A DNA stretch of 39,788 nucleotides, taken from the IMG/VR virus record IMGVR_UViG_3300032431_000022. One strand, 5' to 3'. The stretch's first letter is position 1. Each line of letters opens with the position of its first letter. This document shows, piece after piece, positions 3,101 to 18,238 of the stretch. The notes below the pieces were generated by a model. The model had not been told where the DNA came from, did no database searches, and saw only the letters and a program-made list of their open reading frames with translations. The position numbers and the translations under genes were made by a program. This DNA is from a virus.

Positions 3101-5374
3101 ATGCCAACCAACATTATCACATTCGGTAGCGCGGTCGCATTTTCGGGTACATATCGGATCTACCGAAAGGCTCGCTGGGCTGATTCCTGGACACTCGACG
3201 AGCGGCTCCTCGTCACGGGCCTATCGATCGCCGCAGCTCCCACCATCCCGACCGCCTCGTTCACCTATCGATATGGCCAGGCTCGCGAATTCAATTCCGC
3301 GACGATGGTCACGCGATCGCGACTAAGCATCGAAGGCCACTTCATAGCGATCGAAGTCGATTGCCCCGAGGCCAGTACGTTCCATAGCTGGGTGGGCTAT
3401 GTCGATGCTGTATCGGAGAGCGAGCGCGGAGCAACACTGGTCGGCGCTAACATGATCGCAACCGGCCTGCAAACTTTTTCATGCGTTGGAATCGTCAACG
3501 CTTTAGCCTTCGAACAAATCGACAGGACGTTTTTTAACAACAACACAACCGGCACACAAAAGGCCGAGATGGCTCTTTCGCCACCGATCTTCAATCGGCT
3601 GATCAAAGATAAACTAACCGACGGAGATGACCGCCCCGAGCAATCGCGAGCAGACTCCAAGATCACCGAACCACCAGCGTCAACGACTGCGTTATCGTTC
3701 CTCCATATCTTCGATCGATTCTACGGACGCAACTCCAACGGCACAGTAACCTACAATAGCTGGTCCACCAAAGACATCGCCGAGCATCTCCTAGACCGCT
3801 ACCAACCACTGGATGCAACCGGAGCCAAAGCGATCAAATTTCGTTGGCGAGCGGGCTCGCTAGATCGTCTACCCACCGCCGACCAACCAATGCTCGATTG
3901 CACCGGAAAGACTCTCCTGCAATCACTCGACGAACTGATCACCGGAGCGAAGCTAATCGGCTACTATGCCGAGCACGTCATAGACGCAGCTGTTCCATGG
4001 ATCGAGCTGGTAACATTCACCTACGCATCAACCGCCGTCGACGTAGGCGATTACACAATCCCAGCCAACGACGACATCGTTGATCTGATCATGTTTGCCG
4101 ACCCAGCCACCGGCTACACAACGCAGTTCAACTTGTCGCAAAAGTACGACCAAGTAATTGCACGCGGAGCCCGCCGCAGAGTCGTCGCAACGCTCAACAT
4201 GAAAGACACCGCAGGCACCCCAGAGCCGAGTGTGATTCGATCATGGCCGACGTCATTACAAACAACTGACCGTCAAGCCAAGCTTGACGCGATTGCCGCA
4301 GAATCGGATGCAGTATCATCGCAATCCGAAAAGACCGAAAAGTATCTTGCGATATACGACTCGCCGCAGTTCTTCCCTGTCGGCTCAAACTTTATTTTGC
4401 GAGTCAATGGATGGACTGGCAACCGCCATTTTCAAATTGCATCGCACAGATTGTTTGAACAACAAAAGGACGCCGAAGGTAACGATCAAGACTACTACCC
4501 ATCTCCGCAATACTTGCGTGTCCTCAACGACCTGCCATTACTGGAGGGGATCAATTACAAAAACGGATTTTCACAATCGGCACTCGGATTACGGCCACGT
4601 CGATACCTGGAAAATCAAGTCTTTTCGCCTGAGTTTACGCAGTCCGGTGCTACGTTCACTGCGCATGCAACGAAAAAAGTTTACTGGGGTGATCGCCATA
4701 AACGAACGTACTTTTGGAAGCCCAGCGAGCCACCGTTTTCGATTAAGGGTGATCCCCTCGACAACGCGTGCGGTGTCGCGTTAAAAATCGAAGGAGCATC
4801 ACAGTACCAATTGCTGTTTGGTGACTTGTCGGTACCATCCAGCCCGTTCGTCCCGCACCTGCCACACATCGCCACGGCGCAATTGCAAGTGACATGCTGC
4901 CTCGAGGAAGATCGCCAAATCGAATCACGCTGGCCAACCGAAAGCACTATCTCCGCAGCCGCTGCTCTGGATGCCGTTCGCCGTCTGATCATCGACGCCC
5001 CGAACTGTCAAAAGAATCGCATCCTCGAGGGCACGCTCCTGTGGACCGATCAAGAAGTGTTCTCGGTCGCATCCACGCAAACGATCCGCGATGACACGGC
5101 AAAGCTCACTTCGCTCGCTAAACGAGCCTCCGCATGGTTCACAGTCCCGCGTCGAGTTCTGCGAGTCAAAACCGCTCGCACAACCTCACTCGTGGGTCTC
5201 GGTAAACTAGTTCGCAACATCGAAAACAGCACCGTCCAATCGCTCGAAATCAACACGGTAATCACGCAATTATCGCTAACCTTTGATTCCACACGCGGAC
5301 CATCCATGGAGATCGAAACCCAGTCCGGTCAAATCGATGCGCTCGCGTTTGTCCCCGCTGGTTGGGAGACCTAG
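3101..5374 (+). CDS. Large tail/baseplate-associated structural protein (757 aa)
   Basis: Long ORF directly after the distal tail candidate. No motif recognised. Confidence 0.45.
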   Translation: MPTNIITFGSAVAFSGTYRIYRKARWADSWTLDERLLVTGLSIAAAPTIPTASFTYRYGQAREFNSATMVTRSRLSIEGHFIAIEVDCPEASTFHSWVGYVDAVSESERGATLVGANMIATGLQTFSCVGIVNALAFEQIDRTFFNNNTTGTQKAEMALSPPIFNRLIKDKLTDGDDRPEQSRADSKITEPPASTTALSFLHIFDRFYGRNSNGTVTYNSWSTKDIAEHLLDRYQPLDATGAKAIKFRWRAGSLDRLPTADQPMLDCTGKTLLQSLDELITGAKLIGYYAEHVIDAAVPWIELVTFTYASTAVDVGDYTIPANDDIVDLIMFADPATGYTTQFNLSQKYDQVIARGARRRVVATLNMKDTAGTPEPSVIRSWPTSLQTTDRQAKLDAIAAESDAVSSQSEKTEKYLAIYDSPQFFPVGSNFILRVNGWTGNRHFQIASHRLFEQQKDAEGNDQDYYPSPQYLRVLNDLPLLEGINYKNGFSQSALGLRPRRYLENQVFSPEFTQSGATFTAHATKKVYWGDRHKRTYFWKPSEPPFSIKGDPLDNACGVALKIEGASQYQLLFGDLSVPSSPFVPHLPHIATAQLQVTCCLEEDRQIESRWPTESTISAAAALDAVRRLIIDAPNCQKNRILEGTLLWTDQEVFSVASTQTIRDDTAKLTSLAKRASAWFTVPRRVLRVKTARTTSLVGLGKLVRNIENSTVQSLEINTVITQLSLTFDSTRGPSMEIETQSGQIDALAFVPAGWET

Positions 5375-5385
5375 TAGTCGACCTA

Positions 5386-5463
5386 ATGAGCCGCAACGCG
5401 ATAGCGTGCGGTTTTTACGAACATAAAAGAAAGGAAACCGCACGCTATCGCGTTGCGGCTCAT
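5386..5463. repeat. Perfect inverted repeat: 29-bp arms (5386-5414 and 5435-5463) with a 20-nt loop
   Basis: atgagccgcaacgcgatagcgtgcggttt and its exact reverse complement, read directly. Intergenic between the 757-aa gene and ATG 5470. Confidence 0.95.
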
Positions 5464-5469
5464 AAAACC

Positions 5470-5925
5470 ATGAATGCCGCACGCGTAGTACGTCTAACCG
5501 GAGCCCGCACCGATACATCTACCGGTCCAGTCATGTGGTCGATCGAGATACCCGACGGAGATCCAATCGAATCCGACGAAATCTATTGCAACGCAGGTTT
5601 TTATTGGATCCTAGTCAACGTCAAAGTCAACTCTATTTCGACCATGACCAACGAACGCAAATTCGAATTTGACTTAGAAACGCTAACTCCTCGAGGCGTC
5701 ACTCTATCGACCCGAGAGCATACGCACCCAGTCCCAGGATTTAGCGCATCGTCGGCAGGTCCGCGATTGGTCTACCAATCACCGTTTCAGTTTTGGTCCT
5801 ACGGCACGATTATTCAGGGCACAAAACTAAAGCTAATCGTCGAGCATCCTTGCAACGTTGAATTGATCGCTGTCCGCCATGCAAACATTGCCAACGAGTC
5901 CATGATGGAATTGGAGCTGCGATAG
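5470..5925 (+). CDS. Hypothetical structural protein (151 aa)
   Basis: The ORF-track start at 5362 would translate the hairpin. The in-frame ATG at 5470 just after the hairpin is preferred. Confidence 0.5.
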   Translation: MNAARVVRLTGARTDTSTGPVMWSIEIPDGDPIESDEIYCNAGFYWILVNVKVNSISTMTNERKFEFDLETLTPRGVTLSTREHTHPVPGFSASSAGPRLVYQSPFQFWSYGTIIQGTKLKLIVEHPCNVELIAVRHANIANESMMELELR

Positions 5926-6525: not shown

Positions 6526-7583
6526 ACAATATCCAGCCATTCAATTACGTTGGCCATTGGACTGGAACCGGCACCACATCAGGAGCCGCCGTATCGATCA
6601 CAACCGCGCCCTACACACGTTCGACCGTCGACAGCAGCAGCGGCACCACCAGTCGATTCCAGTGGCGACCATCGACCCAAACCGCCGCACCCGACAAACG
6701 CGTTCTGCGCCCCCGAAACCGCATGTCAGTCGCGTATTTAATCACGGTCAGGCCAACAACAGCCACCTGGCAAACACGACTAACGCGAATGGAGATCGCA
6801 ACCAACCCATTCGTAAGACCCGATCATGTGCATTGTGTACCTGGCCTTCCTACCAGTTTTTCTACGGTCGCTTCAGCGTCTGGCACGACATACACCGCAC
6901 ACTACCCTGGTGCGATTGTCGTGCCAAATCCAATACTAGAGTTGTCGTCCGGCAACCCTCGAGTTGTCAGCGATCGAATTGTCGGAAACTCCAGCGGCGA
7001 GGTCCGGACTAACGGTATCAGTGGGGATGTGCAAATATTCGACAGCGAGCGAATATTTGCTACGGGCATTTTTAGCCAGGGTTTTGCACCCTATACGCGG
7101 ATACTTTCGGCGTATCAACTTGTCCACGGACTGACTTCCCCAATCACAACAAACATCTGGCCGCAGGATACATTTACTTCCTGGGGTATGGCTCACATCG
7201 GAGCCAATACCGATTGGTGCCCACCGATCATCGTCGAGGCCAGTGATACAGTAGATTTCGAGGCGTCGATGTCACTCTGGATAATCGATCGACCCGTCTC
7301 GCCATTTACGCAAACCAATCTACGAGCGATTTCCGAGAGCGGTCAGCGATCGCTCACCAATCTAGCCGTCTCGCCACCCACGCCAGCCGCCCCGCCGTTT
7401 GCATTCTCGCGGCACCGCATACTCCCCGCTGGTCAATACTGGCGAACCCTTACCTACCCCGCAACCTACGCCTCCCCGACCGCTCGCTGGTCCGCCGTCC
7501 CAGGATCCTCCAGCACCGGATTCACGCCACCAATCACAGAGCCAAGTTGCCCATTCGTAATCACGCCAGGCGTCCCAGACTAA
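6522..7583 (+). CDS. Hypothetical tail protein (353 aa), Ser/Thr/Pro-rich
   Basis: In-frame ATG 6522 overlaps the preceding stop (ATGA). Last gene of the plus-strand operon. Its stop overlaps the intI stop convergently by 4 nt. Confidence 0.5.
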   Translation: MNNIQPFNYVGHWTGTGTTSGAAVSITTAPYTRSTVDSSSGTTSRFQWRPSTQTAAPDKRVLRPRNRMSVAYLITVRPTTATWQTRLTRMEIATNPFVRPDHVHCVPGLPTSFSTVASASGTTYTAHYPGAIVVPNPILELSSGNPRVVSDRIVGNSSGEVRTNGISGDVQIFDSERIFATGIFSQGFAPYTRILSAYQLVHGLTSPITTNIWPQDTFTSWGMAHIGANTDWCPPIIVEASDTVDFEASMSLWIIDRPVSPFTQTNLRAISESGQRSLTNLAVSPPTPAAPPFAFSRHRILPAGQYWRTLTYPATYASPTARWSAVPGSSSTGFTPPITEPSCPFVITPGVPD

Positions 7584-8590
7584 GCCCGCTTCCGTCGATG
7601 GATCTGCATAGTCGAAGGGTTCGCCATTAGCGTCTCCAGCGGGCTCAAAGCCGCCGTCGCCTGATGTTCGTCCGAGTGTACGTAAATTTCAGTTGTCCTT
7701 ATATCCGCGTGACCCAAAAGTTGCATCAACGTTCGCATCGGTACGCCTTGCTCGTGCGAGTGCGTCGCGTATGAATGCCGTAGCACATGCGATGTTACCC
7801 GCTTCATAATCCCCGCTCGCTCAGATGCCTCCTTGATCATCCTTGCAATATGATCAGGATGGCGATGATGACGACACAAAACTCGCTCGTGCCCAACGCT
7901 AAGGCAGTCGCTTGGAAACAGGAAATACCACATCAGCGACGATGCCGCACGAGGCGATTTCCGCCGATACGCATCGGGCAGCGAAACGCCGTTTGGATTC
8001 TGCGTTTGATCGCATCGGCAAACCACTTCGACCGATTGGATTTGACGCCGAACCGCTTGATGCACAATCTCCGGAAAGACCGTAAACCGCCACTTTTCGC
8101 CCTTGGTTGTTTTGATCGCCAATTGTTTCCGATCGAAGCTAATATCCTTCAGCCTCAACCCAACAGCATCACCAATCCGAAGCCCGCACCCGTACATCAA
8201 TTGAGCGACCAACAGATTCACCCCGTCAAGCTGCGTGAACAACCTACCGACCTCACCGACACTCAGCACCTCACGAGTGTGAGCCTCCCGCTTGGCCCGC
8301 ATCGCGCTAACATTCTCGATCGAGATCCCCAGTATCTCCCGATAGAGATACAGCACCGCTTGCAAAGCAGTATTCTGAGTACTTTTCGACACACCCTTAT
8401 CCGTCGACAACCAAGACAACCACCGCTCAATTTCCACCCGCCCACAATCCTTCGGATGCCGCCACTCACTAGCATTGTACGACCGCACATGCTGCATATA
8501 GTCGACACAATACCCCCAATAAGTCCGAAAAGTATTAGGCGATAAGCCCTGCAACTTAATCTTCCGCTCCATCTGTTCCTCAAGTTTCAT
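7580..8590 (-). CDS. intI: Integron integrase (IntI-type tyrosine recombinase, 336 aa)
   Basis: GVSLPDAYRRKSPRAASSLMWYFLFP...CRHH matches the IntI-specific insertion (IntI1: [26 protein letters not shown]...RRHH). Catalytic set present: GLRIGD, KGEKWR, HVLRHSYAT, LLGHADIRTTEIYVH. SPLE tail is like IntI1 SPLD. Start chosen at MKLEEQ, with GAGGAG upstream. Confidence 0.85.
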   Translation of the reverse strand: MKLEEQMERKIKLQGLSPNTFRTYWGYCVDYMQHVRSYNASEWRHPKDCGRVEIERWLSWLSTDKGVSKSTQNTALQAVLYLYREILGISIENVSAMRAKREAHTREVLSVGEVGRLFTQLDGVNLLVAQLMYGCGLRIGDAVGLRLKDISFDRKQLAIKTTKGEKWRFTVFPEIVHQAVRRQIQSVEVVCRCDQTQNPNGVSLPDAYRRKSPRAASSLMWYFLFPSDCLSVGHERVLCRHHRHPDHIARMIKEASERAGIMKRVTSHVLRHSYATHSHEQGVPMRTLMQLLGHADIRTTEIYVHSDEHQATAALSPLETLMANPSTMQIHRRKRA

Positions 8591-8652
8591 TATCCTGCGC
8601 TCCTCATGTATTATCCGTGTTAAAAATCGACTAATAAGTTGTTCGCAGGGCC
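8591..8652. other. intI-proximal site: attI candidate or short degenerate attC-like hairpin
   Basis: gttcgcagggcc (8641-8652) is the exact complement of 9008-9019. cctgcg (8594-8599) pairs with cgcagg (8644-8649). The arm ttagtcgat resembles the consensus arm ttgaccgat. Overlaps the intI SD. Confidence 0.45.
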
Positions 8653-8999
8653 TACTTGCGGCCTTTTGGTTTTTTAATTGCACTCGGTGACGAATCAAGC
8701 TCGTCTTGGATTCTTGCTTGCCTACGCGATGCCAACTCGCCATACGCATAAGCTGCGATGCCTTCCATATTTTCCGCTGCTCCGTAATGATTGGTCAACG
8801 TCGCCTCGGCTTCCATGCCGTCCTCGCGAATGGCACTAAATCGCATCACGAAGAGTAGATCCCGAATCTTGTACTTGTTCCGTAGTTCATACAATTCATC
8901 ACAAAATTTCACTACTCGCTCATTCGCAACCTCGAATGATTCGTGAGGTATGCTGACTTCGCGGTATTGCTGCATGTCGTTTTTAATTACTGATGTCAT
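8652..8999 (-). CDS. Cassette ORF A, hypothetical (115 aa)
   Basis: Start moved to the in-frame ATG at 8999, because the upstream part of the track ORF lies in the attC-like hairpin. Flanked by a complementary 12-mer pair. Confidence 0.6.
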   Translation of the reverse strand: MTSVIKNDMQQYREVSIPHESFEVANERVVKFCDELYELRNKYKIRDLLFVMRFSAIREDGMEAEATLTNHYGAAENMEGIAAYAYGELASRRQARIQDELDSSPSAIKKPKGRK

Positions 9000-9007
9000 T
9001 TGATTAC

Positions 9008-9104
9008 GGCCCTGCGAACAAAGCGTTGGACCGAAGCACCGGCCAAACATTGATTTGAATTTGAATCGTCAACCGGTGCATCGGTCAACTATTTCGTTAT
9101 CGGG
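9008..9104. repeat. attC-like imperfect hairpin a1 (97 bp)
   Basis: Stem gaccgaAgcaccgg / ccggtgcAtcggtc with a conserved A.A mismatch. Outer boxes end in AAC (9017-9019) and GTT (9096-9098). Confidence 0.8.
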
Positions 9105-9312
9105 ATGACCAACGCTCAACAATGATCGCAACTGTAGCGACGATCCCAAGCGCAATTAAGACCCCTGCAACCAAAGCTAATCCACCCCAGAAAGGGAGAG
9201 TGACCAACCACCATGGCCAATCAATGACTCCGCAAAGCTTTAGCGTGACAAAAACAACTCCAAGTAAACCAGTAACACCTATGCCGCCTGACGAGATTCT
9301 TTTATCTGACAT
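9097..9312 (-). CDS. Cassette ORF B, small membrane protein (71 aa, about 2 TM)
   Basis: Hydrophobic segments GLLGVVFVTLKLCGV and GGLALVAGVLIALGIVATVAIIV. The TAA stop lies inside the ATAAC box. Leader is ttatcgggtgatttATG. Confidence 0.65.
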   Translation of the reverse strand: MSDKRISSGGIGVTGLLGVVFVTLKLCGVIDWPWWLVTLPFWGGLALVAGVLIALGIVATVAIIVERWSSR

Positions 9313-9318
9313 AAATCA

Positions 9319-9412
9319 CCCGATAACAAAGCGTTCGACCGAAGCACCGGCCAAACATTGATTTGATTGTTAAACGTCAACCGGTGCATCGGTCAACTAT
9401 TTCGTTAGGATG
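9319..9412. repeat. attC-like imperfect hairpin a2 (94 bp)
   Basis: Near-identical to a1, a3 and a6. Left box cccgataac, right box gttaggatg. Confidence 0.8.
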
Positions 9413-9524
9413 ACGGAAAATCCAACCTAACAAACATGATGACAAACCATACAGCCACGCTGAACAGTAAGCCACAGCCAAAACCTAGCCAAAAAATCAA
9501 TCCGTTTTCGCCTTGCTTGTCCAT
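9405..9524 (-). CDS. Cassette ORF C2, 39-aa hydrophobic peptide
   Basis: MDKQGENGLIFWLGFGCGLLFSVAVWFVIMFVRLDFPSS, with one TM segment. The stop lies inside the TAAC box of a2. A short ORF, so uncertain. Confidence 0.4.
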   Translation of the reverse strand: MDKQGENGLIFWLGFGCGLLFSVAVWFVIMFVRLDFPSS

Positions 9525-9568
9525 TGTTTTTTGCTGACTAGATGACTGTTTTTTGCTGACTAGATGAC
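9525..9568. repeat. Exact 22-bp tandem duplication (9525-9546, 9547-9568)
   Basis: tgttttttgctgactagatgac occurs twice, read directly. It spans the stop of ORF C1 and the leader of ORF C2. Confidence 0.9.
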
Positions 9569-9934
9569 AACTTCTTCGGTCTTTATTTGCGGGCGAGGCT
9601 GCAAATCCAACGTTGACCACTCAAATTTTATTTGCAACGCCTCGTCGACGAAACTGTACTCTTCAATTCGCCCATCAAGAGGCGTCGTTTTCTTGACCTT
9701 TTGTCCGCCAAAGAGCCGGTTGATGATTGCGTGCTTTTCCGAATCCTTGAAACACAACCAAAGCGAGACGCGAACGCCTGGAGCACTGCGAGGATGTAGG
9801 GTTATTCGAAAGTCCCCTAGATCGTTGCGATGTTCGTATGCCCATTCCGTGGCTCGTAGCATTCCCTCACGCGCAAGAATCCACCCATGATCAATGCTGT
9901 TTTGTACTTCCGTTTCTTCCGCGATTGCACTCAT
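9560..9934 (-). CDS. Cassette ORF C1, hypothetical (124 aa)
   Basis: Start moved to the in-frame ATG at 9934, outside hairpin a3. Confidence 0.6.
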   Translation of the reverse strand: MSAIAEETEVQNSIDHGWILAREGMLRATEWAYEHRNDLGDFRITLHPRSAPGVRVSLWLCFKDSEKHAIINRLFGGQKVKKTTPLDGRIEEYSFVDEALQIKFEWSTLDLQPRPQIKTEEVVI

Positions 9935-9941
9935 AATTCCG

Positions 9942-10035
9942 CATCCTAACAAAGCGTTGGACCGAAGCACCGGCCAAACATTGATTTGAAGCTGAATCGT
10001 CAACCGGTGCATCGGTCAACTATTTCGTTATCGGG
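9942..10035. repeat. attC-like imperfect hairpin a3 (94 bp)
   Basis: Same core as a1. Left box catcctaac, right box gttatcggg. Confidence 0.8.
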
Positions 10036-10264
10036 ACAGATTATTTTCGACCTGTTCCCGCCAATTTTTATTTCTAGCGTCCAGTTCATCGGCAATTACC
10101 CGAAGGTCTTTTGCAGACAATGCGCCACGATCCTTGATCCAGAAATATTGGAACCCGTCATCTAGTGGCCCAATCTCTTTGTGCTTATTCAGACTCGAAA
10201 TCACTTTGCGTCGGTGAATCGCATCGTCAGTATTCTGTCCCCATTCGCGGTTTGAATCACTCAT
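10028..10264 (-). CDS. Cassette ORF D, hypothetical (78 aa)
   Basis: Stop lies inside the ATAAC box of a3. ATG is 14 nt from the GTT box of a4. Confidence 0.6.
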   Translation of the reverse strand: MSDSNREWGQNTDDAIHRRKVISSLNKHKEIGPLDDGFQYFWIKDRGALSAKDLRVIADELDARNKNWREQVENNLSR

Positions 10265-10270
10265 TTACTG

Positions 10271-10365
10271 CCCTATAACAAAGCGTTGGACCGAAGCCGT
10301 CCGCAGCCTTTAAATTGATTGATATTCTTTTGTTGACGGCATCGGTCAACTATTTCGTTATGCGG
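10271..10365. repeat. attC-like imperfect hairpin a4 (95 bp), divergent sequence with the same fold
   Basis: Stem gaccgaAgccgtc / gacggcAtcggtc. The distal stem changes compensatorily relative to a1, and the A.A mismatch is retained. Confidence 0.8.
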
Positions 10366-10385
10366 ACGGTTTCCCGCAAATCTCT

Positions 10386-10649
10386 TTATTCGATTTGCGT
10401 ATTTTTCTTAGCCTCAATGACATGGCTAACAAACGCCCATTCTTTCCAATCTTTCTGTACATCTCGGCATCCACGATTGGCTGCTTCGGCCATCGCCATT
10501 ACGTCGACGGTACAAAGGCATTGGTCTTTTGACGGTTCAAACGCACATCCCGCAAGCAATGCAATCGGCACGCTTAACTCGTCAGATAGTCCACCTGCTG
10601 TTTCTATTTCTTTTCGGTCATCGCCGTCGATAACAACAACATCGCACAT
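10386..10649 (-). CDS. Cassette ORF E, hypothetical acidic Cys-containing protein (87 aa)
   Basis: ORF bounded by a4 and a5, flanked by the unit-specific pair gttatgcgg / ccgcataac. Confidence 0.6.
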   Translation of the reverse strand: MCDVVVIDGDDRKEIETAGGLSDELSVPIALLAGCAFEPSKDQCLCTVDVMAMAEAANRGCRDVQKDWKEWAFVSHVIEAKKNTQIE

Positions 10650-10657
10650 AATCGCCG

Positions 10658-10751
10658 CCGCATAACAAAGTCATGCATCGAAGTCCCCGTCGACGCTTGT
10701 TTTGATGGTAAATCACCGAGCGGGGACTCGATGATGACATTCGTTATCGGG
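10658..10751. repeat. attC-like imperfect hairpin a5 (94 bp), most divergent sequence with the same fold
   Basis: tcat[g]catcga[a]gtccccg pairs with cggggactcgatgatga. Two single-base bulges sit on the plus-strand 5' arm. Confidence 0.75.
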
Positions 10752-10965
10752 ATGAAACGTCCGCGTCGATTGAATTGACGTGAACTTTCAAAATCATCGC
10801 CTCATACCATGGTATATCGATTCCTCTTGTTTCTTTGATCCACCGAGACTTCGCCCGCCCATCCAGGTACGCCAGCGGAGACACCAGCAATCCAACGAAA
10901 ACCACTATCACTATCGTCATGCCAAAGACAGAACAGAGAAACTTAAATACTTCAGACCAATTCAT
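10744..10965 (-). CDS. Cassette ORF F, small membrane protein (73 aa)
   Basis: TM segment FGMTIVIVVFVGLLVSPLAYL. Stop lies inside the ATAAC box. Same leader as ORF B (ttatcgggtgatttATG). Confidence 0.65.
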   Translation of the reverse strand: MNWSEVFKFLCSVFGMTIVIVVFVGLLVSPLAYLDGRAKSRWIKETRGIDIPWYEAMILKVHVNSIDADVSSR

Positions 10966-10971
10966 AAATCA

Positions 10972-11065
10972 CCCGATAACAAAGCGTTGGACCGAAGCAC
11001 CGGCCAAACATTGATTTGAAGTTGAACCGTCAACCGGTGCATCGGTCAACTATTTCGTTATCCCG
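10972..11065. repeat. attC-like imperfect hairpin a6 (94 bp)
   Basis: Same core as a1-a3. Left box cccgataac, right box gttatcccg. Confidence 0.8.
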
Positions 11066-11066
11066 A

Positions 11067-11744
11067 TCAAAACAGCACGCCTTGCGACAGTCGCTTGGCC
11101 GCTATCTCGCAATACTCTTCGCTGATCTCAATCAGCGTTGCCTTACGGCCTTCGGCTTTCGCCGCAACGCCGGTTGTTCCACTCCCCGAAAACGGGTCGA
11201 GGATTGTTTTGACTTCTTCGCCAGCATGCCCTATGCACCACTTCATCAAGCCTAAAGGCTTTTCTGTTGGGTGGCTTTTTCCGTTCGTGTGTGCTTCTAC
11301 CCTGCTCATCCTGAACGTCTTGCACGGCTTATCTAAAGTCGTCCAAGCCGCTTCAAAATCACTGCCACTAAACTCCTGAATCTTGTCCCATGTCAACCAG
11401 CACCTGGACGGCTTTACGCTAAAATAGTTTCCACCCCAAACGATGTGCTTGCCTGCCGCCTCTAAAATCGCATCCATTAACCATTGGCTTGGTGTTGCGT
11501 TATCCCATTGGAAACTATCAAACTCCTTTCGCTTCGCGCCTGCTTGCATTTGCATCTTGCCAACTCCAATCCCATACGGTGGATCGGTCAACAGAAGATC
11601 GAACTTCCCCAGGAAGGGTAAAACCTGCCGACAATCTGCGTTGTAAATCGTCACCGCTTCATCCTGATAGTACGGACGAAAGGGTACTGACGGGATAACA
11701 ATTGCATGAACCGGAGCAACCGGCGGTATTTCATTTTGAATCAT
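11067..11744 (-). CDS. DNA methyltransferase, beta-class N6A/N4C (225 aa)
   Basis: LLLTDPPYG precedes DPFSGSGTTGVAA, the motif order typical of beta-class N6_N4 methyltransferases. Start placed at MIQNEI, preceded by GAGGA. Confidence 0.85.
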   Translation of the reverse strand: MIQNEIPPVAPVHAIVIPSVPFRPYYQDEAVTIYNADCRQVLPFLGKFDLLLTDPPYGIGVGKMQMQAGAKRKEFDSFQWDNATPSQWLMDAILEAAGKHIVWGGNYFSVKPSRCWLTWDKIQEFSGSDFEAAWTTLDKPCKTFRMSRVEAHTNGKSHPTEKPLGLMKWCIGHAGEEVKTILDPFSGSGTTGVAAKAEGRKATLIEISEEYCEIAAKRLSQGVLF

Positions 11745-11772
11745 AATTTTTCCTCGGTTGACCCGGTTATGC
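11691..11772. repeat. Degenerate attC-like site overlapping the methyltransferase 5' end
   Basis: cgggataac (11691-11699) is the exact complement of the a6 right box. The following arm aacaattgcatgaaccggagcaaccgg resembles the consensus arm. gttatgc lies at 11766-11772. Confidence 0.4.
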
Positions 11773-11782
11773 AAAGCGTTCA

Positions 11783-12205
11783 TCAGACCGGTTTAACGTA
11801 TTCGAACTCGATCCGCGTTACCTCTGTTTCAGGACTACATTTCATGTGTCCAGCAAACATTTCAACAAACTCCTTGCCTGTCATGCCGGGAAAACCCTCC
11901 ATCTCGCATTCTCCACGACCGTAGCCAGAGCTTTGGAGCATAGTGTCAAGCGACTCAAACGTAACATCCACAACCCGGATTTGTCCCAGTCGCTGAATCT
12001 GTTCGCCGGGCCTAAGTCCCATGCACTTAACGCACGCGTTTAGAATCTGTCCCGGTTTAAGATTCTTCCATCCAACGCGACGAGTGACGGTTTTGGTCCG
12101 TTTCCGAATTTGGTCTGTCGTTAGGGCAAACGATATATTTCTCGGCACGATGAACAATCCAATGCAACCGAGTTGCGGGTAAAGGTTTTTGAAGTGGAAA
12201 ATCAA
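11783..12205 (-). CDS. ASCH-domain protein (140 aa)
   Basis: ISFALTTDQIRKRTKTVTRRVGW is an ASCH-like N-terminal motif. Confidence 0.55.
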   Translation of the reverse strand: MIFHFKNLYPQLGCIGLFIVPRNISFALTTDQIRKRTKTVTRRVGWKNLKPGQILNACVKCMGLRPGEQIQRLGQIRVVDVTFESLDTMLQSSGYGRGECEMEGFPGMTGKEFVEMFAGHMKCSPETEVTRIEFEYVKPV

Positions 12206-12241
12206 CTGGCCGCAACCGGTTGATTGGAAGCGTTCGTCGTA

Positions 12242-12580
12242 TTACGCAAACTGTTTAGCCGCGTAAATACGTTCGTAATTTGACCGCCTGCGATTCTGAA
12301 AATCCACGACTGATTGCACGCCCTCGAAATCGCACTCGTGAAGCTCATCCATCAGCGCGCCATGACAGTGGCAATGTAAATCGATTTCTTTAATCATGTC
12401 CAGACACGTTTGGCAAGTCCGATAGTCGCTAAAATCACCTTCCCAAAGTCCCTTGGCGTATTCGTGTTGCTCGCCTTTTTCGATAACACGCAAGCACTCA
12501 CTGCATTGATGATCCTTGCGGCCTTTAACGACCTTAGATTCGTAAAATTCTGGTGGGTTGTCCCAGTAGCAATCGCACAT
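12242..12580 (-). CDS. Cys/His-rich hypothetical protein (112 aa)
   Basis: Several CxxC and HCHCH motifs. AGGAG lies upstream of the ATG. Confidence 0.6.
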   Translation of the reverse strand: MCDCYWDNPPEFYESKVVKGRKDHQCSECLRVIEKGEQHEYAKGLWEGDFSDYRTCQTCLDMIKEIDLHCHCHGALMDELHECDFEGVQSVVDFQNRRRSNYERIYAAKQFA

Positions 12581-12665
12581 AACAAACTCCTAAAAGCGAT
12601 GGACCGAAGCCATTGATTAACGTTAATTGCTTAAAACATCTTCTAGCGACGGCATGAGTCATCGC
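12578..12665. repeat. Degenerate attC-like hairpin a7
   Basis: cataacaaa..aaagcgatggaccgaagcc resembles the consensus left arm. The stem 12596-12611 / 12651-12665 keeps the A.A irregularity. No clear right-hand GTT box. Confidence 0.4.
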
Positions 12666-12694
12666 AATCGTCTCCTGATTCATAAACCACGGGC

Positions 12695-13153
12695 CTACCT
12701 CACTTCTGAAATGATTACTGCGAGTTGCTCGTTAAATTCCATTTGCGTTACTTCGTTGTTTTTTAGTTTTTGAGTTAAAGTCACGCCATTGACATATGCG
12801 CGATCGATTCCGTAGTCGAACATTGCTTTTCTTGTTCCGTTAGCTTCGCGTTTTTCGCGGGCTCGTCGTTGCAAATCGGATTCTTGGCGACCCTTGTCGC
12901 GGGTGAACATAGCGGACGCCCGCACCACCAAAGCGATACGATCGTACTCATACGCCTTCGGTGGTTCGCGTCTACCGTGGGTCCAGTCGCCAAGCACGAA
13001 TAAAGCCTCGGAAAACTCAACGCCGCCGAGTACTGAAAACCAAACTTCCATCGTCGCTTTTAGGTCCGGTGATTTGTCCGAAAGCTGGCCAAGGAATGAC
13101 GGAAAAGCCACAAATAATTGCCTCGTAAATTCGGTAAATTGATTGGCATTCAT
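12695..13153 (-). CDS. Hypothetical replication-module protein (152 aa)
   Basis: Position after the DUF1376 gene. Weak resemblance to helicase-loader-type small proteins, not verified. Confidence 0.5.
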   Translation of the reverse strand: MNANQFTEFTRQLFVAFPSFLGQLSDKSPDLKATMEVWFSVLGGVEFSEALFVLGDWTHGRREPPKAYEYDRIALVVRASAMFTRDKGRQESDLQRRAREKREANGTRKAMFDYGIDRAYVNGVTLTQKLKNNEVTQMEFNEQLAVIISEVR

Positions 13154-13905
13154 GCGTCTGCTCCTGCGACAATTGGGATCTTGGGTGGTGATTTTTGAAA
13201 CCTCCCGCCGCTGGGAAACTGCTTCGGTTCCTGAGTTCGATGATCGCCGTTTAGTAGCAAATTCTTCGCGCCCTTAGTCATCGAAAACTCAATGATTTCT
13301 ATTGCTTCTGTCTCGTTTTTGGCGGCCCGGTCGAGGGCCATGATTTGAGATTCCTCAGCGGTCTCGGTCAACGGTTTTTGCTGTTCCGCAAGGTGCTTTC
13401 GCCACCGAGTCCAAGCCTCGGAAAACTTCATCGAATCAAAACCAGCAACCACCCGAGAGTGAGAGAGAGTAATTGAAGAAGAAGATGAAGATGAAGAGCG
13501 GTGTAACATCGGTGTTACATCTGCGTTACAACTACCGTTACTGATATTTTCCTTTCCGTTTTTCCTGTGTTTTGCCACTCTTACCTTTGTGCTCTTGCGA
13601 TCTTCTTCGTCTCGAACCATTCGCCGAGAATAAAAGGCACCGCGTTCATCAACCGAACAAACACACTTTTCAACAAGCTCGACAATGGCCTTCCTCGTAA
13701 CATCCGCGTTACCACCTACAGCCGCAGTCACGTCATCGACAGACCACACACTGGAACCGGTACCGAGAACGCCACGAGGCGAACATTCGAACATAAGGCA
13801 AAGCATATCTACCCACACGCCTCGCGCCGCATGGCTGCAACGACGGACGCATGGATCTTTCATCCAGTCACCTGGATAAAATTGGAACGCTGGCATCTTA
13901 CCCAC
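13150..13905 (-). CDS. DUF1376-family (YdaU-like) phage replication-associated protein (251 aa)
   Basis: N-terminal FQFYPGDWMKD...ARGVWVDMLCLMF matches the DUF1376 pattern. Contains a poly-Ser linker. Confidence 0.55.
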   Translation of the reverse strand: MGKMPAFQFYPGDWMKDPCVRRCSHAARGVWVDMLCLMFECSPRGVLGTGSSVWSVDDVTAAVGGNADVTRKAIVELVEKCVCSVDERGAFYSRRMVRDEEDRKSTKVRVAKHRKNGKENISNGSCNADVTPMLHRSSSSSSSSITLSHSRVVAGFDSMKFSEAWTRWRKHLAEQQKPLTETAEESQIMALDRAAKNETEAIEIIEFSMTKGAKNLLLNGDHRTQEPKQFPSGGRFQKSPPKIPIVAGADA

Positions 13906-14149
13906 GGCTAAATCCTTTTACCGACTCTGAATCAAACCACTTACTATTTTGGTCAGGACTAATAAATGACCCTGACCACCATTGCGATTTCCCGCAAATA
14001 CATTTGAGCCCTTGCTTCGATAACGCTCGCTCATCCTCGGTGTATCGACCACACCGCGAACAACGAGCCATCGCACCCGCATCATGACGAGCCGTCGCCG
14101 CAATGTGCGAGCCTCGTATCGTGATCGTCGTGGTGGGAGTTTCGATCAC
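13898..14149 (-). CDS. Small zinc-ribbon protein (83 aa)
   Basis: CSRCGR...CICGK motif. Coupled to its neighbours. Confidence 0.5.
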   Translation of the reverse strand: MIETPTTTITIRGSHIAATARHDAGAMARCSRCGRYTEDERALSKQGLKCICGKSQWWSGSFISPDQNSKWFDSESVKGFSRG

Positions 14150-15114
14150 GACTTAACCGTCGCTTCCAACTCGGCCTTGCGTTTGCTAAACGCGTTTCGA
14201 ATTGTGACCTTTTGCCCATCGGTAAACGTTCGGTTCTTTGCCTTTTGGTCCCAGTGCTTCCAGTTTCCGGTAAGCTGCGATAAATCGGCTACAGCATCAA
14301 GCGACATGTGTAGATCCGCAGCGATTGATTCCGGTAGAGCCTCGGGGGCCGCGTCGAGTGGGATAGATTGCCTAGGCTTTGTTTTCGTTTGATTCTCGAC
14401 CACCGGCAGCGGTTCCACTGTCGTTACCGTTTCGGCATCTACAGTTTCGTGATTGTCTTGGCTTTCGAAAGACATGCCGGAAACTCGCTCGAAAATCTTT
14501 GCGTACAATTTTCGTTTTGCCTTGCCTTGGATCGCGTCGAAGGTCGTGTAATCTTCGGCCTTTATCGGTATGCGAGTATCTTGCTTTTCGCTTTTCACGC
14601 ACTCGATAAAGCCGTCCCTGCCGTGAAATAACCAAGAGGCTGTCGCACCAACCAACGCGACCTTGGAGTCGAGTATTTCGGGAACCTCAAGATTGATCTG
14701 AAGGTCTCTTAATCCAGGAAAGTTTTGTAGCCTATTTTCATATCCTTCCTTCGTTGGATACAGATTGCCTGCGATTATGTTAATATTGTTTCCGGTTACG
14801 TCGAAGCCTCGCAAGAATGCCTGGATGCAAACATCGCGAACTATTTCAACGGGGTATCCAACAGGGCCATGTTTAGGTTTCTCGCGATCAGTTCGGAATC
14901 CGACAACGGTCCCCTGCAACGCCATCATGTCCTCCATCACCGCAGGGGTGCATAGAGACTGAAGCGTCCTTAAAGCTCTCGCCAAGACCAATGCTTTCGT
15001 TATTAGGTTTCCGTTTTTCGTAGCTTCGTCAAGATGCTTTTGCAATTCTTTTACGACCTTATCAATCAACTCGCTCGCATGTGGTTGATTGGTCGTTGTT
15101 AATTCATTACTCAT
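14146..15114 (-). CDS. Single-strand annealing protein candidate (RecT/Red-beta-like, 322 aa)
   Basis: Position in the recombination module next to the DUF1064 nuclease. Loose RecT-like central region. Not verified. Confidence 0.4.
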   Translation of the reverse strand: MSNELTTTNQPHASELIDKVVKELQKHLDEATKNGNLITKALVLARALRTLQSLCTPAVMEDMMALQGTVVGFRTDREKPKHGPVGYPVEIVRDVCIQAFLRGFDVTGNNINIIAGNLYPTKEGYENRLQNFPGLRDLQINLEVPEILDSKVALVGATASWLFHGRDGFIECVKSEKQDTRIPIKAEDYTTFDAIQGKAKRKLYAKIFERVSGMSFESQDNHETVDAETVTTVEPLPVVENQTKTKPRQSIPLDAAPEALPESIAADLHMSLDAVADLSQLTGNWKHWDQKAKNRTFTDGQKVTIRNAFSKRKAELEATVKS

Positions 15115-15413
15115 TTATTTACTCGACTCCATTGGGAAACAATTGACTGTAATTCTTTTTTGTTGCATGGCTCGAAAGTATGCGGGCATACCTCGGTACC
15201 ATTGCGGCCAGTAATCTTTTTGACGTCGCAGCGACCCGAACATTGTCCGGCCCACCGCACTCGTTCGCGTTGTGATTTGTGGTATTCGACGAGCGCCATA
15301 CACTCGACCATTGACTCGCTATCGAGTTGCCCGGCAGCGACCATCTGTCGACCGATCTCGAGCATCGGGGTGTCTCCCCAATCCTGCCTGAGTGGTGGTA
15401 ACACTCCGATCAC
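15111..15413 (-). CDS. Hypothetical Cys-rich protein (100 aa)
   Basis: Translationally coupled ORF in the early operon. Confidence 0.5.
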   Translation of the reverse strand: MIGVLPPLRQDWGDTPMLEIGRQMVAAGQLDSESMVECMALVEYHKSQRERVRWAGQCSGRCDVKKITGRNGTEVCPHTFEPCNKKELQSIVSQWSRVNK

Positions 15414-15808
15414 TGGGTAGCTCCTCGGTATTGCAAGACAACCGCCGTTTTTCCGTGCCGCGTCTCGCGTCGCATGTCCGTCTCGATGATCATGTAAACG
15501 TCAAGCAACTCACGGACACGACCGCATACCGTTGTTAAAGGCATCACCATCGATATTGATAGCTCGTCCCGCGTCGCACCCATCAAGCCGAGCTGCCGAA
15601 GTCGCTCCAGCACTCGATCACGATCGCCACCATGTCGTGGCTTGGTCGTATCGCGTACCGCGTTACGATTACGCAACCCGGCGTCCTTAGACTCCGCAGG
15701 CACCTCTTTACGAGCGGCATTGCGGGCGAGTGGCTTGTCCGTCTGCTGATGGTCGTAATGACCACCGGAAACCGGAGCCGCATCCATGTCAAAAAGTGTC
15801 GGTTGCAT
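15410..15808 (-). CDS. Winged-helix-like DNA-binding protein candidate (132 aa)
   Basis: C-terminal DRVLERLRQLGLMGATRDELS...TVCGRVRELL resembles a wHTH. Confidence 0.4.
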   Translation of the reverse strand: MQPTLFDMDAAPVSGGHYDHQQTDKPLARNAARKEVPAESKDAGLRNRNAVRDTTKPRHGGDRDRVLERLRQLGLMGATRDELSISMVMPLTTVCGRVRELLDVYMIIETDMRRETRHGKTAVVLQYRGATQ

Positions 15809-15813
15809 AATGT

Positions 15814-16197
15814 CTAGCTCTCCTTAATCTCTATGCCATGTTGTGCGAGCATTAGCCGCTTCTTTTGCTTGTACACCGCTGTCCGGTAGCCCTTGGAATC
15901 CTCGACCACTTCGAGACCTGTTTTAAGATCGACGTACACAAAATCAGCTATGTACTTTGCGTTGATCACAACCGGGAAAGCGACCTGTCGTCGAAGCCCC
16001 GAAATCTTTCCCGCCCGTATTAATAGTTGCAATTCTTTGTATCGCCGAGCCTCTTTTTTCGAAGCAAACCGAATCCCATCTACCTCTGTAGGTTTTGCGT
16101 GGTACTTATGCTCGCGGGATCCTGACCGCTTCGGTCTGGTCCCCTTTGGCTTTCGATCGCTGAGTAGCTTTGCAAGGATTGTTTTTTGGCGTGTCAT
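15814..16197 (-). CDS. DUF1064-family nuclease-like protein (127 aa)
   Basis: KYHAKPTEVDGIRFASKKEARRYKELQLL...ADFVY...VEDSKG matches the DUF1064 pattern. ATGA overlap with the upstream gene. Confidence 0.75.
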   Translation of the reverse strand: MTRQKTILAKLLSDRKPKGTRPKRSGSREHKYHAKPTEVDGIRFASKKEARRYKELQLLIRAGKISGLRRQVAFPVVINAKYIADFVYVDLKTGLEVVEDSKGYRTAVYKQKKRLMLAQHGIEIKES

Positions 16198-16655
16198 AGA
16201 GCACCTGCCTTTCGCTTGGCAACCCAGCACGGCTTTAGCTCTTTTTTGAGTTCGATCGTTTCCAACCGATCGCGACCGTCGCTCACCGTTATCGTTCGAA
16301 ATTTTGGCGGCATACCGTTGTTTGTTCGTTCAATTCTCTTATCAAAAAAATCAGCAGCAAGCACCGCAGCCCGCAGAGGCGTCAACGCCTCGCCATAGAT
16401 CACTTTGAGCATCTCGCGTCGATTCTCCGGCCAGCAATGCCACTCGTTACGCACCGCACTGTTGAGCCCCGCATCAACGCGTTGACGTTGCAGATCCTGG
16501 TAGACTTCCTCACGATGGATCGCAACCCGCATAGGAGCCTCGACACCCACCTTGACCCGTCCGTCCAGGACATCGCAGACCATCACTTGTATATCATCAC
16601 CGATCCGAATTACCTCACCCCGAGAGCGTCCTAGCACTAACATCACAAAGTCCAT
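16194..16655 (-). CDS. csrA: CsrA-domain protein with an approximately 100-aa C-terminal extension
   Basis: MLVLGRSRGEVIRIGDDIQVMVCDVLDGRVKVGVEAPMRVAIHREEVY is a near-canonical CsrA fold sequence. Start is at 16655 or 16643. Confidence 0.8.
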   Translation of the reverse strand: MDFVMLVLGRSRGEVIRIGDDIQVMVCDVLDGRVKVGVEAPMRVAIHREEVYQDLQRQRVDAGLNSAVRNEWHCWPENRREMLKVIYGEALTPLRAAVLAADFFDKRIERTNNGMPPKFRTITVSDGRDRLETIELKKELKPCWVAKRKAGAL

Positions 16656-16749
16656 TCTGTTAAAAAAACTATCCAAAACACACGGCGACCGAACCCAGTC
16701 GCTAACCTGCCAAAACCACTTGAGCAAGCCATCGAACGACGCGTGTTAG

Positions 16750-16817
16750 TACCGGGCGTCGGATTCGAACCAACGGATGGACTTTCAAGATCCACCTAGC
16801 CACCACGGCCACCCGGC
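16750..16817 (-). tRNA. tRNA-like gene, 68 nt, anticodon UGA, atypical D arm and very short variable region
   Basis: Canonical T arm GTTGG-TTCGAAT-CCGAC. Anticodon arm TGGAT-CTTGAAA-GTCCA. 7-bp acceptor with G.U pairs at both ends. No standard D stem. Confidence 0.45.
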
Positions 16818-16897
16818 AAATGATCATTCCTCGTAAATTGCCCAACAAAAATACATCCAAATCCCAACCGCAAACAGCAACGTAACTTCCATTGTTC

Positions 16898-17410
16898 TCA
16901 GACTCCTATGCAATCAAAATCGGCGTTAAATTGACGCAACATCAAATACATCGATTCGTCGACTTCCTCGTAGAAGTCTTTGACAACAACGACACAGCGA
17001 AAGTCCTGCGACTTGAAAAACAACTGGGCTTGCAGGTTGGTTTCTCGGACCTCGACTGTGATTCGCGAACGTAGGTGATAGGACATTTTGAAACTAAGCC
17101 GCTCGATCATCGCTGATCCGCATCCCTTGCGACGATGCTCGGCATCAACCGCGAAGTTGAGCAAATGTAGATGGCTCTTATGTAGCTCGTAGATCATGTA
17201 GCCAACGATCTTGCCACCGACCTCGCACACCATGCCGATACAGTCCCTCTGCCGCAGAGCCCGAGTAAATTCCGCCTCTGTCCAGGGATGCGAAAACGAG
17301 GCCCGCTCCATCGGAATCACGTATTCTAATAGATCGAGGTGATTCATCCAGCGAACGTAAGGAGTGTGATTCGCAGTTGCCTTTGTCGATTGTTTAACAG
17401 TTCCGATCAT
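16898..17410 (-). CDS. GNAT-family N-acetyltransferase (RimI-like, 170 aa)
   Basis: LLNFAVDAEHRRKGCGSAMIERL (acetyl-CoA motif A) and SFSHPWTEAEF. Confidence 0.8.
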   Translation of the reverse strand: MIGTVKQSTKATANHTPYVRWMNHLDLLEYVIPMERASFSHPWTEAEFTRALRQRDCIGMVCEVGGKIVGYMIYELHKSHLHLLNFAVDAEHRRKGCGSAMIERLSFKMSYHLRSRITVEVRETNLQAQLFFKSQDFRCVVVVKDFYEEVDESMYLMLRQFNADFDCIGV

Positions 17411-17604
17411 TGTTTCACCCAGCTTTTCTTTAACTCATAGGCCACACAGGGGACGCGGCGATAGTCTTCACCGGTCTTTGCTAAAAGAGTATCGCACGCG
17501 TTCGAAATCGCGTGCTGCGAATTGATTCCGTTGGTGTAGATCACCATCGAATCGTTACAAAAGACCACCCGAAACCACTTTGGCTTAACTACCAACGCGA
17601 CCAT
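17407..17604 (-). CDS. Hypothetical protein (65 aa)
   Basis: Internal ATG chosen to limit overlap with the upstream gene. Confidence 0.4.
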   Translation of the reverse strand: MVALVVKPKWFRVVFCNDSMVIYTNGINSQHAISNACDTLLAKTGEDYRRVPCVAYELKKSWVKQ

Positions 17605-17822
17605 GATTTCAAATCCTTTGTTTGTTCGATCTTCGGACCTGCGGGCATCTCTGCCCAGAACCGGACATCGACAGCCAAAAAGCCTTCCGCCGATGTCCAA
17701 ACACCACTATCGAGATAACCAAACCAAACCGACTCACCCAAGGAAGTTGTCTTGACCAAGACCATGATGTCCTCGTCGGGCAGCTCTTTATCAACACTCA
17801 CCCATGTAATCGTTTCGACCAT
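17589..17822 (-). CDS. DUF551-like protein (77 aa)
   Basis: WVSVDKELPDEDIMVLV...WFGY...RFWAEMP follows the DUF551 pattern. Confidence 0.5.
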   Translation of the reverse strand: MVETITWVSVDKELPDEDIMVLVKTTSLGESVWFGYLDSGVWTSAEGFLAVDVRFWAEMPAGPKIEQTKDLKSWSRW

Positions 17823-17852
17823 CGTTCGCTCCTCGTTTAAATTCCATTAAAA

Positions 17853-17892
17853 GTCGGCCTCAAGCCCGCATCCGTACCGGCTTGGAGCCGAC
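17853..17892 (-). terminator. GC-rich hairpin followed by a T-run on the minus strand (attenuator/terminator candidate)
   Basis: gtcggcctcaagcc / ggcttggagccgac, a 14-nt stem (10 pairs, central 4-nt internal loop) with a 12-nt loop. The minus strand continues ttttaa. Lies between the first and second early genes. Confidence 0.45.
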
Positions 17893-17926
17893 AGCAATAC
17901 CCGCCACCGTTGACGGGGAAGATCAG

Positions 17927-18238
17927 TTACGCCATCTTTCGAAAAATGCTCCGTGATTTGTAAACACGGGCTTGATTACGACCCAGTACTCGGCCAGCGC
18001 GAATCAGCCGGGCTTCGTAGATAGCGGCCTCGCGAGTAGTCTTTTTGGCTCGCTCGGTTCGGTATGCGTAGTAACAAGATGTGCAAAGTCCAAGCTTAGT
18101 GGCTGGCTTGCTGCACTCACAACCTTTCGAGTCGGTTCCTAGGCAAAGCCCAGTCTCAACACGTTCCCGAACTCGGGTAATGACTCTGGCCGCAGCGCGA
18201 CAATCTAAAACCATGATCAACTCTTCTGTAGGGTCCAT
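17927..18238 (-). CDS. First early-operon gene, Cys-rich hypothetical protein (103 aa)
   Basis: Start at the MDPTEE internal ATG. Divergent from the gene at 18444. Confidence 0.5.
   Translation of the reverse strand: MDPTEELIMVLDCRAAARVITRVRERVETGLCLGTDSKGCECSKPATKLGLCTSCYYAYRTERAKKTTREAAIYEARLIRAGRVLGRNQARVYKSRSIFRKMA

Follow-up and report, generated by a model that had tools for sequence, protein, structure and literature searches.

The 39,788-nucleotide virus record IMGVR_UViG_3300032431_000022 of IMG/VR, called the window here in its full length, contains an integron integrase gene (intI), an attachment site (attI) that abuts the start codon of this gene, and an array of nine cassettes spanning 8642-12670, each with its own attC recombination site. 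The segment 8591-12670 is very probably the variable part of a complete integron in a circularly assembled tailed phage, with crossover at G/TT (the slash marks the point of exchange) and with the cassette genes on the bottom strand of attC. Cassettes are delimited by the published definition, starting with the R' box's first T and extending to the next G (PMC2674596). The features of the locus are listed below, where ORF stands for open reading frame, bit scores are those of a covariance model of attC, and box matches are counts of complementary positions between the two ends of a unit.

7580-8590, minus strand: intI, integron integrase of 336 aa, identified by TIGR02249, Pfam and alignment with 2A3V
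8591-8641, plus strand: attI, crossover G8641/T8642; core ...AATAAGTTG/TT conserved in related integrons
8642-9096, plus strand: cassette c1, attC a1 9017-9098 (106.5 bits); ORF 8652-8999 or 8652-9050 (minus); boxes 12/12
9097-9404, plus strand: cassette c2, attC a2 9325-9406; ORF 9097-9312 (minus), small membrane protein
9405-10027, plus strand: cassette c3, attC a3 9948-10029; ORF 9560-9937 (minus) and a small ORF within 9405-9620 (minus)
10028-10357, plus strand: cassette c4, attC a4 10277-10359; ORF 10028-10264 (minus); boxes 8/9
10358-10743, plus strand: cassette c5, attC a5 10664-10745; ORF 10386-10649 (minus)
10744-11057, plus strand: cassette c6, attC a6 10978-11059; ORF 10744-10965 (minus)
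11058-11778, plus strand: cassette c7, attC a7 11697-11780; ORF 11067-11744 (minus), N6/N4 DNA methyltransferase
11779-12232, plus strand: cassette c8, attC a8 12153-12234 (68.5 bits); ORF 11783-12205 (minus); boxes 4/6
12233-12670, plus strand: cassette c9, decayed terminal attC a9 at about 12584-12679 (27.6 bits, E = 2.5e-4); ORF 12242-12580 (minus), Cys-rich

The intI product matches the NCBIfam model TIGR02249 over profile positions 3-315 of 315, scoring 282.1 bits where the curated cut-off is 265, and it contains the Pfam domains Phage_int_SAM_4 and Phage_integrase. Its alignment with VchIntIA, the Vibrio integrase of known crystal structure (2A3V), covers residues 39-320 and takes in the IntI-specific insertion (LPDAYRRKSPRAASSLMWYFLFPS in the window protein versus LPTALKEKYPNAPYEFRWHYLFPS in VchIntIA); the protein thus has the make-up of an IntI-subfamily tyrosine recombinase with the IntI-specific domain. 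The gene starts with an ATG at 8590, upstream of which stands AGGAG. Between this start codon and the first cassette lie about 50 nt that are conserved up to ...AATAAGTTG in the window and in the related loci L002 and L003 (IntI identity ∼70%). Directly after the G of attI the sequence becomes cassette-specific, reading GTTcgcagggcc in the window, GTTCGCCTG in L002 and GTTATGCGG in L003, and each of these three sequences is complementary to the box preceding the first attC. An attI that adjoins intI and ends in G/TT was found in every array examined. The intact intI, 50 nt from the first cassette, also sets the locus apart from a cluster of attC sites lacking an integrase nearby (CALIN).

To detect attC sites, a covariance model was trained on a1-a8, the eight clear sites of the window. 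Scanning all AAC...GTT pairs for minimum free energy had been tried and was abandoned in favor of this model, as long windows fold well by chance and the scan is too noisy. The model finds nine attC sites in the window (a1-a8 and the weak a9) and more than 50 further sites adjoining homologous integrases in other contigs. The window sites are ∼82 nt long and fold more stably than their shuffled counterparts, with z from -2.7 to -5.2; four of them are 83-94% identical, and a5 is divergent in sequence with its fold unchanged (z = -4.6 and -5.2). Compensatory double changes occur in 15 of the 16 predicted stem pairs in a 48-site alignment, and an alignment of the arms of 40 sites gives one common architecture: an imperfect palindrome R''(..AAC)-L''...L'-R'(GTT..) that has bases outside the helix, a central spacer that stays unpaired, and a variable loop. 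The sites share little sequence beyond AACAA and CGTT. The claim of the first-pass annotation that only AAC/GTT is invariant had to be corrected for the inner side of the boxes, where AACAA and CGTT are invariant. A constant structure in which the sequence is free to vary is what characterizes attC. A full attC at 8547-8652 (gccctgcAAC ... GTTcgcagggcc), which would have spoken for the opposite polarity, had also been considered and was rejected: it folds no better than shuffled sequence (z = -1.1, -0.5), and its partner box, 8547-8556, belongs to the coding sequence of IntI (K-L-Q-G) and has no counterpart in L002.

The bulges of the hairpin indicate which strand is which. On the plus strand both bulged bases lie on the AAC arm, 5-6 bp apart, with a spacer of 5 nt on that arm and of 6 nt on the other (∼40 sites). 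Extrahelical bases are found on the AAC arm of the top strand and on the opposite arm of the bottom strand, which is the one recombined; on that strand they are usually a G (in L'') and a T, separated by a 6-bp stem (PMC5027507). Position and spacing are thus canonical in the phage sites, and the second bottom-strand bulge is T. The first is C in ∼90% of the sites versus the usual G, and a bulged C at this place looks new. The terminal site a9 (12584-12679) is a fossil attC, with AAA in place of AAC and GTC in place of GTT, and the ribosome-binding site and ATG of the c9 gene occupy the expected R'' position. With both triplets mutated, the last cassette appears to be fixed in the phage genome.

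The first-pass annotation had listed seven pairs of inner boxes that flank the ORF units as complementary. Every coordinate was re-read and all seven pairs are as listed: 8641-8652 and 9008-9019 are complementary at 12/12 positions, with pairing that extends 2 bases outward; five pairs match at 9/9 (9096-9104/9319-9327, 9404-9412/9942-9950, 10357-10365/10658-10666, 10743-10751/10972-10980 and 11057-11065/11691-11699); and 10027-10035 matches 10271-10279 at 8/9. Beyond AAC/GTT there is little pairing between the ends of one and the same site, as the first-pass annotation had noted for a1, where CCTGCG faces ATCGGG. We then compared the 6 nt outside AAC/GTT in 30 units taken from the window and eight related arrays. 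The mean match is 5.43/6 within a unit versus 2.58/6 within a site. When box partners were re-paired at random, 100,000 shuffles gave a mean of 76/180 matches (sd 7.3, maximum 111), and none reached the observed 163/180. The pattern is far beyond chance and is not due to a shared palindromic consensus. The signature of complementary ends is itself textbook integron biology and already known. The first-pass annotation did not recognise it as such, and it also overlooked the phage setting and the unusual coding polarity. Three exceptions to the box rule came from locus L012, two of which are long attCs that were overlooked by the covariance model and whose partner boxes lie inside the interval. 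These attC-like sites, at reverse-complement coordinates ∼9056-9212 and 9807-10333, have loops of ∼150 nt and possibly ∼520 nt; the box-partner rule picked them out, and at least one contains an ORF start.

The interpretation that best fits these features is that IntI acts on attC in its folded single-stranded form, joining such hairpins to one another and to the attI beside the intI start codon. Each cassette would begin with the TT that follows a crossover and end in the G of the attC belonging to it, so that its ends would be the two halves of one R box. These halves, ...xxxxxxAAC (R'') and TTxxxxxx (the rest of R'), would pair in the excised circle, which for c2 would be joined as ...CTATTTCG/TTATCGGGATGACC. 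Insertion at G/TT would part the two halves, and the array would then consist of sites that each combine two cassettes. Such splitting of one R box explains why the ends flanking an ORF are complementary and the ends of a single site are not. The recombined bottom strand is the minus strand of the window, with the bulges on the arm opposite its AAC. What sequence comparison shows is IntI-type recombination at the G/TT of folded bottom-strand attCs, the excision of cassettes as circles, and insertion at attI that yields hybrid sites. The earlier suggestion that units were inserted as circles by recombination within the GTT box, leaving hybrid sites, is supported by IntI, by the attC architecture and by natural variants, all of which are read from sequence.

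Box complementarity fits a crossover at either end of the site because AAC and GTT are reverse complements of each other. Circularizing the units in silico at both candidate crossovers, as the first-pass annotation had proposed, gave reconstituted sites that gain 1-14 kcal/mol; the gain was equal for both boxes and did not locate the crossover. It is the attI junctions, the natural variants and the geometry of the bulges that place the crossover at G/TT, with the plus strand as the conventional top strand and with attI, intI and attC in their canonical orientation to one another. Looking for the same units in other genomic contexts, the other check that had been suggested, was more informative: they were found in related phages, and their boundaries fall on the GTT box. 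One integrase, P0043, is 100% identical in at least 24 contigs from different samples. The phages that carry it have four different arrays, which are identical up to ...caataaattG and unrelated beyond, the divergence falling exactly at ...AATAAATTG/TT. One P0043 cassette (TTCACACGACC...; TTCACACGACCTCGCC...) stands directly behind attI in L031 and L032, behind the attC ...aaaaataagcG in L024, and behind a different attC, ...tgatgggtagcG, in L027, and in each context identity begins at G/TT. The first cassette of L006 is duplicated distally in its array, again joined at G/TT. By sequence comparison, then, cassettes in these arrays move as G/TT-joined units with complementary ends. The integron is probably active in the window phage too, where four of the attCs are 83-94% identical.

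Every credible ORF in the array lies on the minus strand, the bottom strand of attC, and points to attI and intI. The relatives agree, with the called genes of all 12 arrays on the intI strand and the attC model strand opposite to intI in all 12 loci. The strand call relies on the gene calls of the contigs, on family matches and on the placement of stops and starts, not on longest-ORF counts. The cassette stop codons (TAA) are the complement of the TTA in G/TTA, and the box also contains the final codons, which read ..S-S-R-stop for c2 and c6 and ..L-S-R-stop for c4. ORFs start just past the AAC box or within attC. In 16 of 53 attC sites a Shine-Dalgarno-like motif and an ATG stand at a stereotyped position in the loop and begin an ORF that leaves the site through R'' and is 45 codons or longer; the a7 loop, for example, holds a GAGGA ribosome-binding site and the ATG of the c7 ORF (GAGGAAAAATTATG), and the cassettes of L004 and L005 that are homologous to c7 likewise start inside their attC. 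The usual order, which is typical of integrons without defining them, has promoterless top-strand ORFs with attC downstream and a Pc promoter by intI, and it was not found here. As a polarity control, the same covariance model was run on the class 1 integron in a P1 phage record, where the attC matches share the strand of the genes, follow aadA, cmlA and dfrA directly on their downstream side, and are opposite to intI1. Since attC/intI polarity is identical in the class 1 control and the phage clade, only the genes inside the cassettes are flipped, and this reversed cassette-gene polarity looks new.

The same placement of starts and stops would be expected if the cassettes were conventional, each ORF being followed by its attC, with the crossover at the AAC-side box of the plus strand, the true attI at ∼12.7 kb and intI downstream of the last cassette. 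In a minus-strand reading, the ORFs start ∼10 nt past a GTT box and end in a TAAC box, much as in a textbook cassette; the bulged base on the plus strand is G, the usual bottom-strand identity; and in silico circularization is equally good at the AAC-side crossover. We nevertheless consider this arrangement very unlikely. It leaves no space for an attC between 8641 and intI, the sequence near intI is conserved to G/TT and cassette-specific after it, and the same cassette is found right behind attI without the attC that this model would assign to it. The plus-strand bulges on the AAC arm furthermore mark the top strand, in agreement with the class 1 control.

With bottom-strand genes and crossover at G/TT, the cassettes would be read toward attI and intI, the upstream attC often supplying the ribosome-binding site and ATG. 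Read-through from the phage early operon, which includes the replisome organiser and RusA and has intI as its last gene, would replace the Pc promoter near intI. The cassettes are probably expressed together with intI by transcription of this leftward operon from a promoter region near 18.3 kb. Directly after attI, at 8643-8672 on the plus strand, a GC-rich hairpin is followed by TTTTGGTTTTTT and resembles a terminator; such a site would halt intI-side transcription running antisense into the cassettes.

Compared with classical integrons (class 1 and that of Vibrio cholerae, with VchIntIA), the phage system has the same IntI-specific insertion, an attI abutting the 5' end of intI, attC sites with AAC/GTT R boxes, a 5-6 nt unpaired spacer, a loop that varies, and, across from the bottom-strand AAC, an arm bearing two bulges with 5-6 bp between them, a G/TT crossover, hybrid array sites and complementary cassette ends. 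It differs in that the bottom strand of attC encodes the cassette genes, which are directed toward attI/intI, that attC is upstream of its gene and often carries its ribosome-binding site and ATG, that the array has no place for a Pc-driven operon, that the first bottom-strand bulge is C, and that the replicon is a phage. The 'inverted integrase' integrons of Treponema resemble it in that transcription of intI and of the cassette genes has one common direction. In Treponema, however, intI is transcribed toward attI, with its 3' end facing the array and on the same strand as attC (PMC3607928, PMC4889954), whereas the window intI is transcribed away from attI, which its ATG at 8590 faces, and is opposite to the attC polarity, as is the case in classical integrons; here it is the cassette genes that are flipped instead.

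The replicon that carries this integron is a complete tailed-phage genome and looks temperate. The ends of the window overlap exactly by 127 bp (1-127 and 39662-39788), giving a circular assembly of 39,661 bp. Its products include a large terminase of the lambda-gpA type, a portal of the lambda family, a capsid-protease fusion and a tail tube, and the tail genes of the right end run on into large ORFs at the left end. The early genes adjoining the array encode a replisome organiser, a RusA resolvase and a CsrA-like regulator, and the integron occupies the distal end of this leftward early operon, convergent with the tail genes. The CsrA-like regulator and an acetyltransferase are encoded at 16194-16727 and 16898-17410, both on the minus strand. 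In the region 20147-21543 (plus strand), a small ORF at 20147-20374 is followed by the gene of another tyrosine integrase, a conventional one; given this second enzyme, IntI is not the chromosomal integration enzyme of the phage. An HTH_17 excisionase-like gene is called in L002 and L003.

Relatives of IntI at 41-71% identity were found in about 12 other phage-like contigs, several of them in IMG/VR, which carry terminase, portal (lambda-type or Mu-type), primase or helicase genes. Their common layout is one of small same-strand ORFs, then attI, then intI, with the same attC polarity. These relatives bear on whether a bacterial chromosomal integron has merely been juxtaposed to phage genes, either as an assembly chimera or through a one-off capture at imprecise prophage excision. 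The published phage-associated integrons do resemble captures from Vibrio and Shewanella hosts (PMC9892861), and the GC content of the array (47.7%) is below that of the genome (52.3%). The contig nevertheless closes with an exact overlap, the integron has the tail genes on one side and the early operon on the other, and the same layout and attC polarity recur with related integrases in different phage backbones, so that a host-derived insertion or a chimera is very unlikely. Weakest of all, and hardly credible, is the idea that the boxes are the palindromic consensus of a repeated hairpin, such as a repetitive extragenic palindrome (REP), a miniature inverted-repeat transposable element (MITE) or a terminator, and not cassette-specific ends: three of the seven right-hand boxes of the window are indeed the same (GTTATCGGG), and four sites are 83-94% identical, but matches are 5.4/6 within units against 2.6/6 within sites with 0/100,000 permutations reaching this, the non-consensus boxes (cgcagggcc, aggatg, atgcgg, atcccg) each have a partner across the ORF, an IntI gene adjoins the array, the stems covary, arrays differ by whole units at G/TT, and no T-runs follow the hairpins.

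Several observations weigh against an active phage integron with G/TT crossover and bottom-strand genes, or fit it poorly. The support for recombination comes entirely from sequence comparison. Two short contigs share the IntI of the window itself, and both end within or just past the first cassette; with only these short sister contigs, it is the relatives, and not this phage, that display cassette turnover. At the first bottom-strand bulge C takes the place of the usual G, so that recognition of these sites by the window IntI is assumed. The longest ORF is on the minus strand in 31 of 40 units and on the other strand in the remaining 9. A sigma-70 consensus scan of 7400-18600 gave no convincing promoter for the array and was uninformative, with fewer sites than in shuffled sequence. 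Several small cassette ORFs have no homologues in the libraries searched. Among the boxes, unit c8 (11778-12155), which lies outside the range first described, keeps the rule at 4/6, unit c9 with its decayed a9 matches at 1/6 by eye, and one L012 unit stays unexplained by the rule.

Integrons have been reported in phages before, with three complete ones among 10,705 phage genomes in the survey of Qi et al. 2023 (PMC9892861). Like the window, these have an intI/attI/attC array in a temperate phage and methyltransferase cassettes. They carry host-type integrases, namely Vibrio IntIA, the class 1 IntI1 in P1 and a Shewanella IntI (PMC9892861), which are at most 38% identical to the window IntI, whereas the latter recurs in many phage backbones. 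No IntI relative above 38% identity was found in the 50,697 GenBank phage records searched, where the matches were the host-derived integrons of Qi et al. 2023, and a one-genome-per-species scan with IntI returned only a 25%-identical recombinase in a TM6 metagenome-assembled genome, without attC matches. A circular phage genome as integron carrier, with IntI relatives in phage backbones, looks new. Beyond Qi et al. 2023 and the Treponema type, no phage-specific integron lineage and no reversed cassettes were found in the literature, where many subscription papers lay outside the search and priority is accordingly uncertain. Whether the window represents a widespread, so far undescribed lineage of phage-native integrons from freshwater and other metagenomes, with bottom-strand genes, attC as a portable 5' module and reading from the early promoter, through which phages swap anti-restriction and accessory genes, is a question on which we find the case evenly balanced. 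Virus Rctr41k (L021, KX853513.1), the best match among GenBank phages, was considered as a further integron and rejected, its protein being 35% identical, with no attC match to this model and no attI gap. It is a 41-kb virus from a methane-oxidising/anammox enrichment, in which 4680-5678 is annotated as XerD-like and lies downstream of small same-strand ORFs.

The gene-capture machinery appears to be native to phages and not borrowed from a host, and it would allow phages to exchange accessory genes site-specifically. Its location, at the distal end of the early operon adjoining the end of the late genes, is like that of phage moron and accessory hotspots such as the lambdoid nin and b regions, and so is the cargo of methyltransferases, restriction alleviation and small membrane proteins. 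Unlike exchange at those hotspots, integron exchange is site-specific with defined unit boundaries and independent of illegitimate or homologous recombination. The Pc promoter reading promoterless cassettes is usually held to be essential to integron function; the reversed coding polarity shows that the recombination core of integrons is separable from this logic. Phages with an identical integrase and four different arrays offer a ready field system for cassette dynamics.

Among the cassette products, the c7 methyltransferase matches PF01555 (E = 9e-23) and phrog_67 (E = 9e-46), the c2 protein matches phrog_1374 (E = 3e-20), and the c9 protein matches phrog_19515 (E = 4e-13); c8 has a weak ASCH-domain match (E = 0.003) that does not reach the cut-off. 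Methyltransferase genes are present in the window and in L004, L005, L019 and L020, and Lar is found in the P0043 phages. This cargo, annotated as DNA methyltransferase, as small membrane and Zn-ribbon-like proteins and, in a relative, as Lar, suggests that the phages have accessory and anti-restriction genes as an exchangeable set, with the methyltransferases and Lar restriction alleviation pointing to counter-defense. Bacterial integrons have recently been found to stockpile anti-phage defense cassettes, which such phage cargo would mirror.

Cassettes c2 (9097-9406) and c6 (10744-11059) have TTATCGGGATGA in common at one end and, at the other, CAT (the start codon) followed by AAATCACCCGATAAC and the entire attC, with unrelated ORF bodies in between. 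The pattern suggests a reusable attC-plus-leader module that may carry different genes, and this pair, together with the attC sites that contain a ribosome-binding site and ATG, bears on the origin of cassettes. Two further observations concern individual sites. L005 has a solitary but well-scoring attC (14713-14812, 43 bits) among phage genes, 3.7 kb past intI on the side away from the array, which could be the trace of an off-site cassette insertion. Cassette c3 holds a perfect 22-bp tandem duplication at 9525-9568 (two copies of TGTTTTTTGCTGACTAGATGAC), at the point where its two ORFs meet, and this duplication may have shifted or truncated a reading frame.

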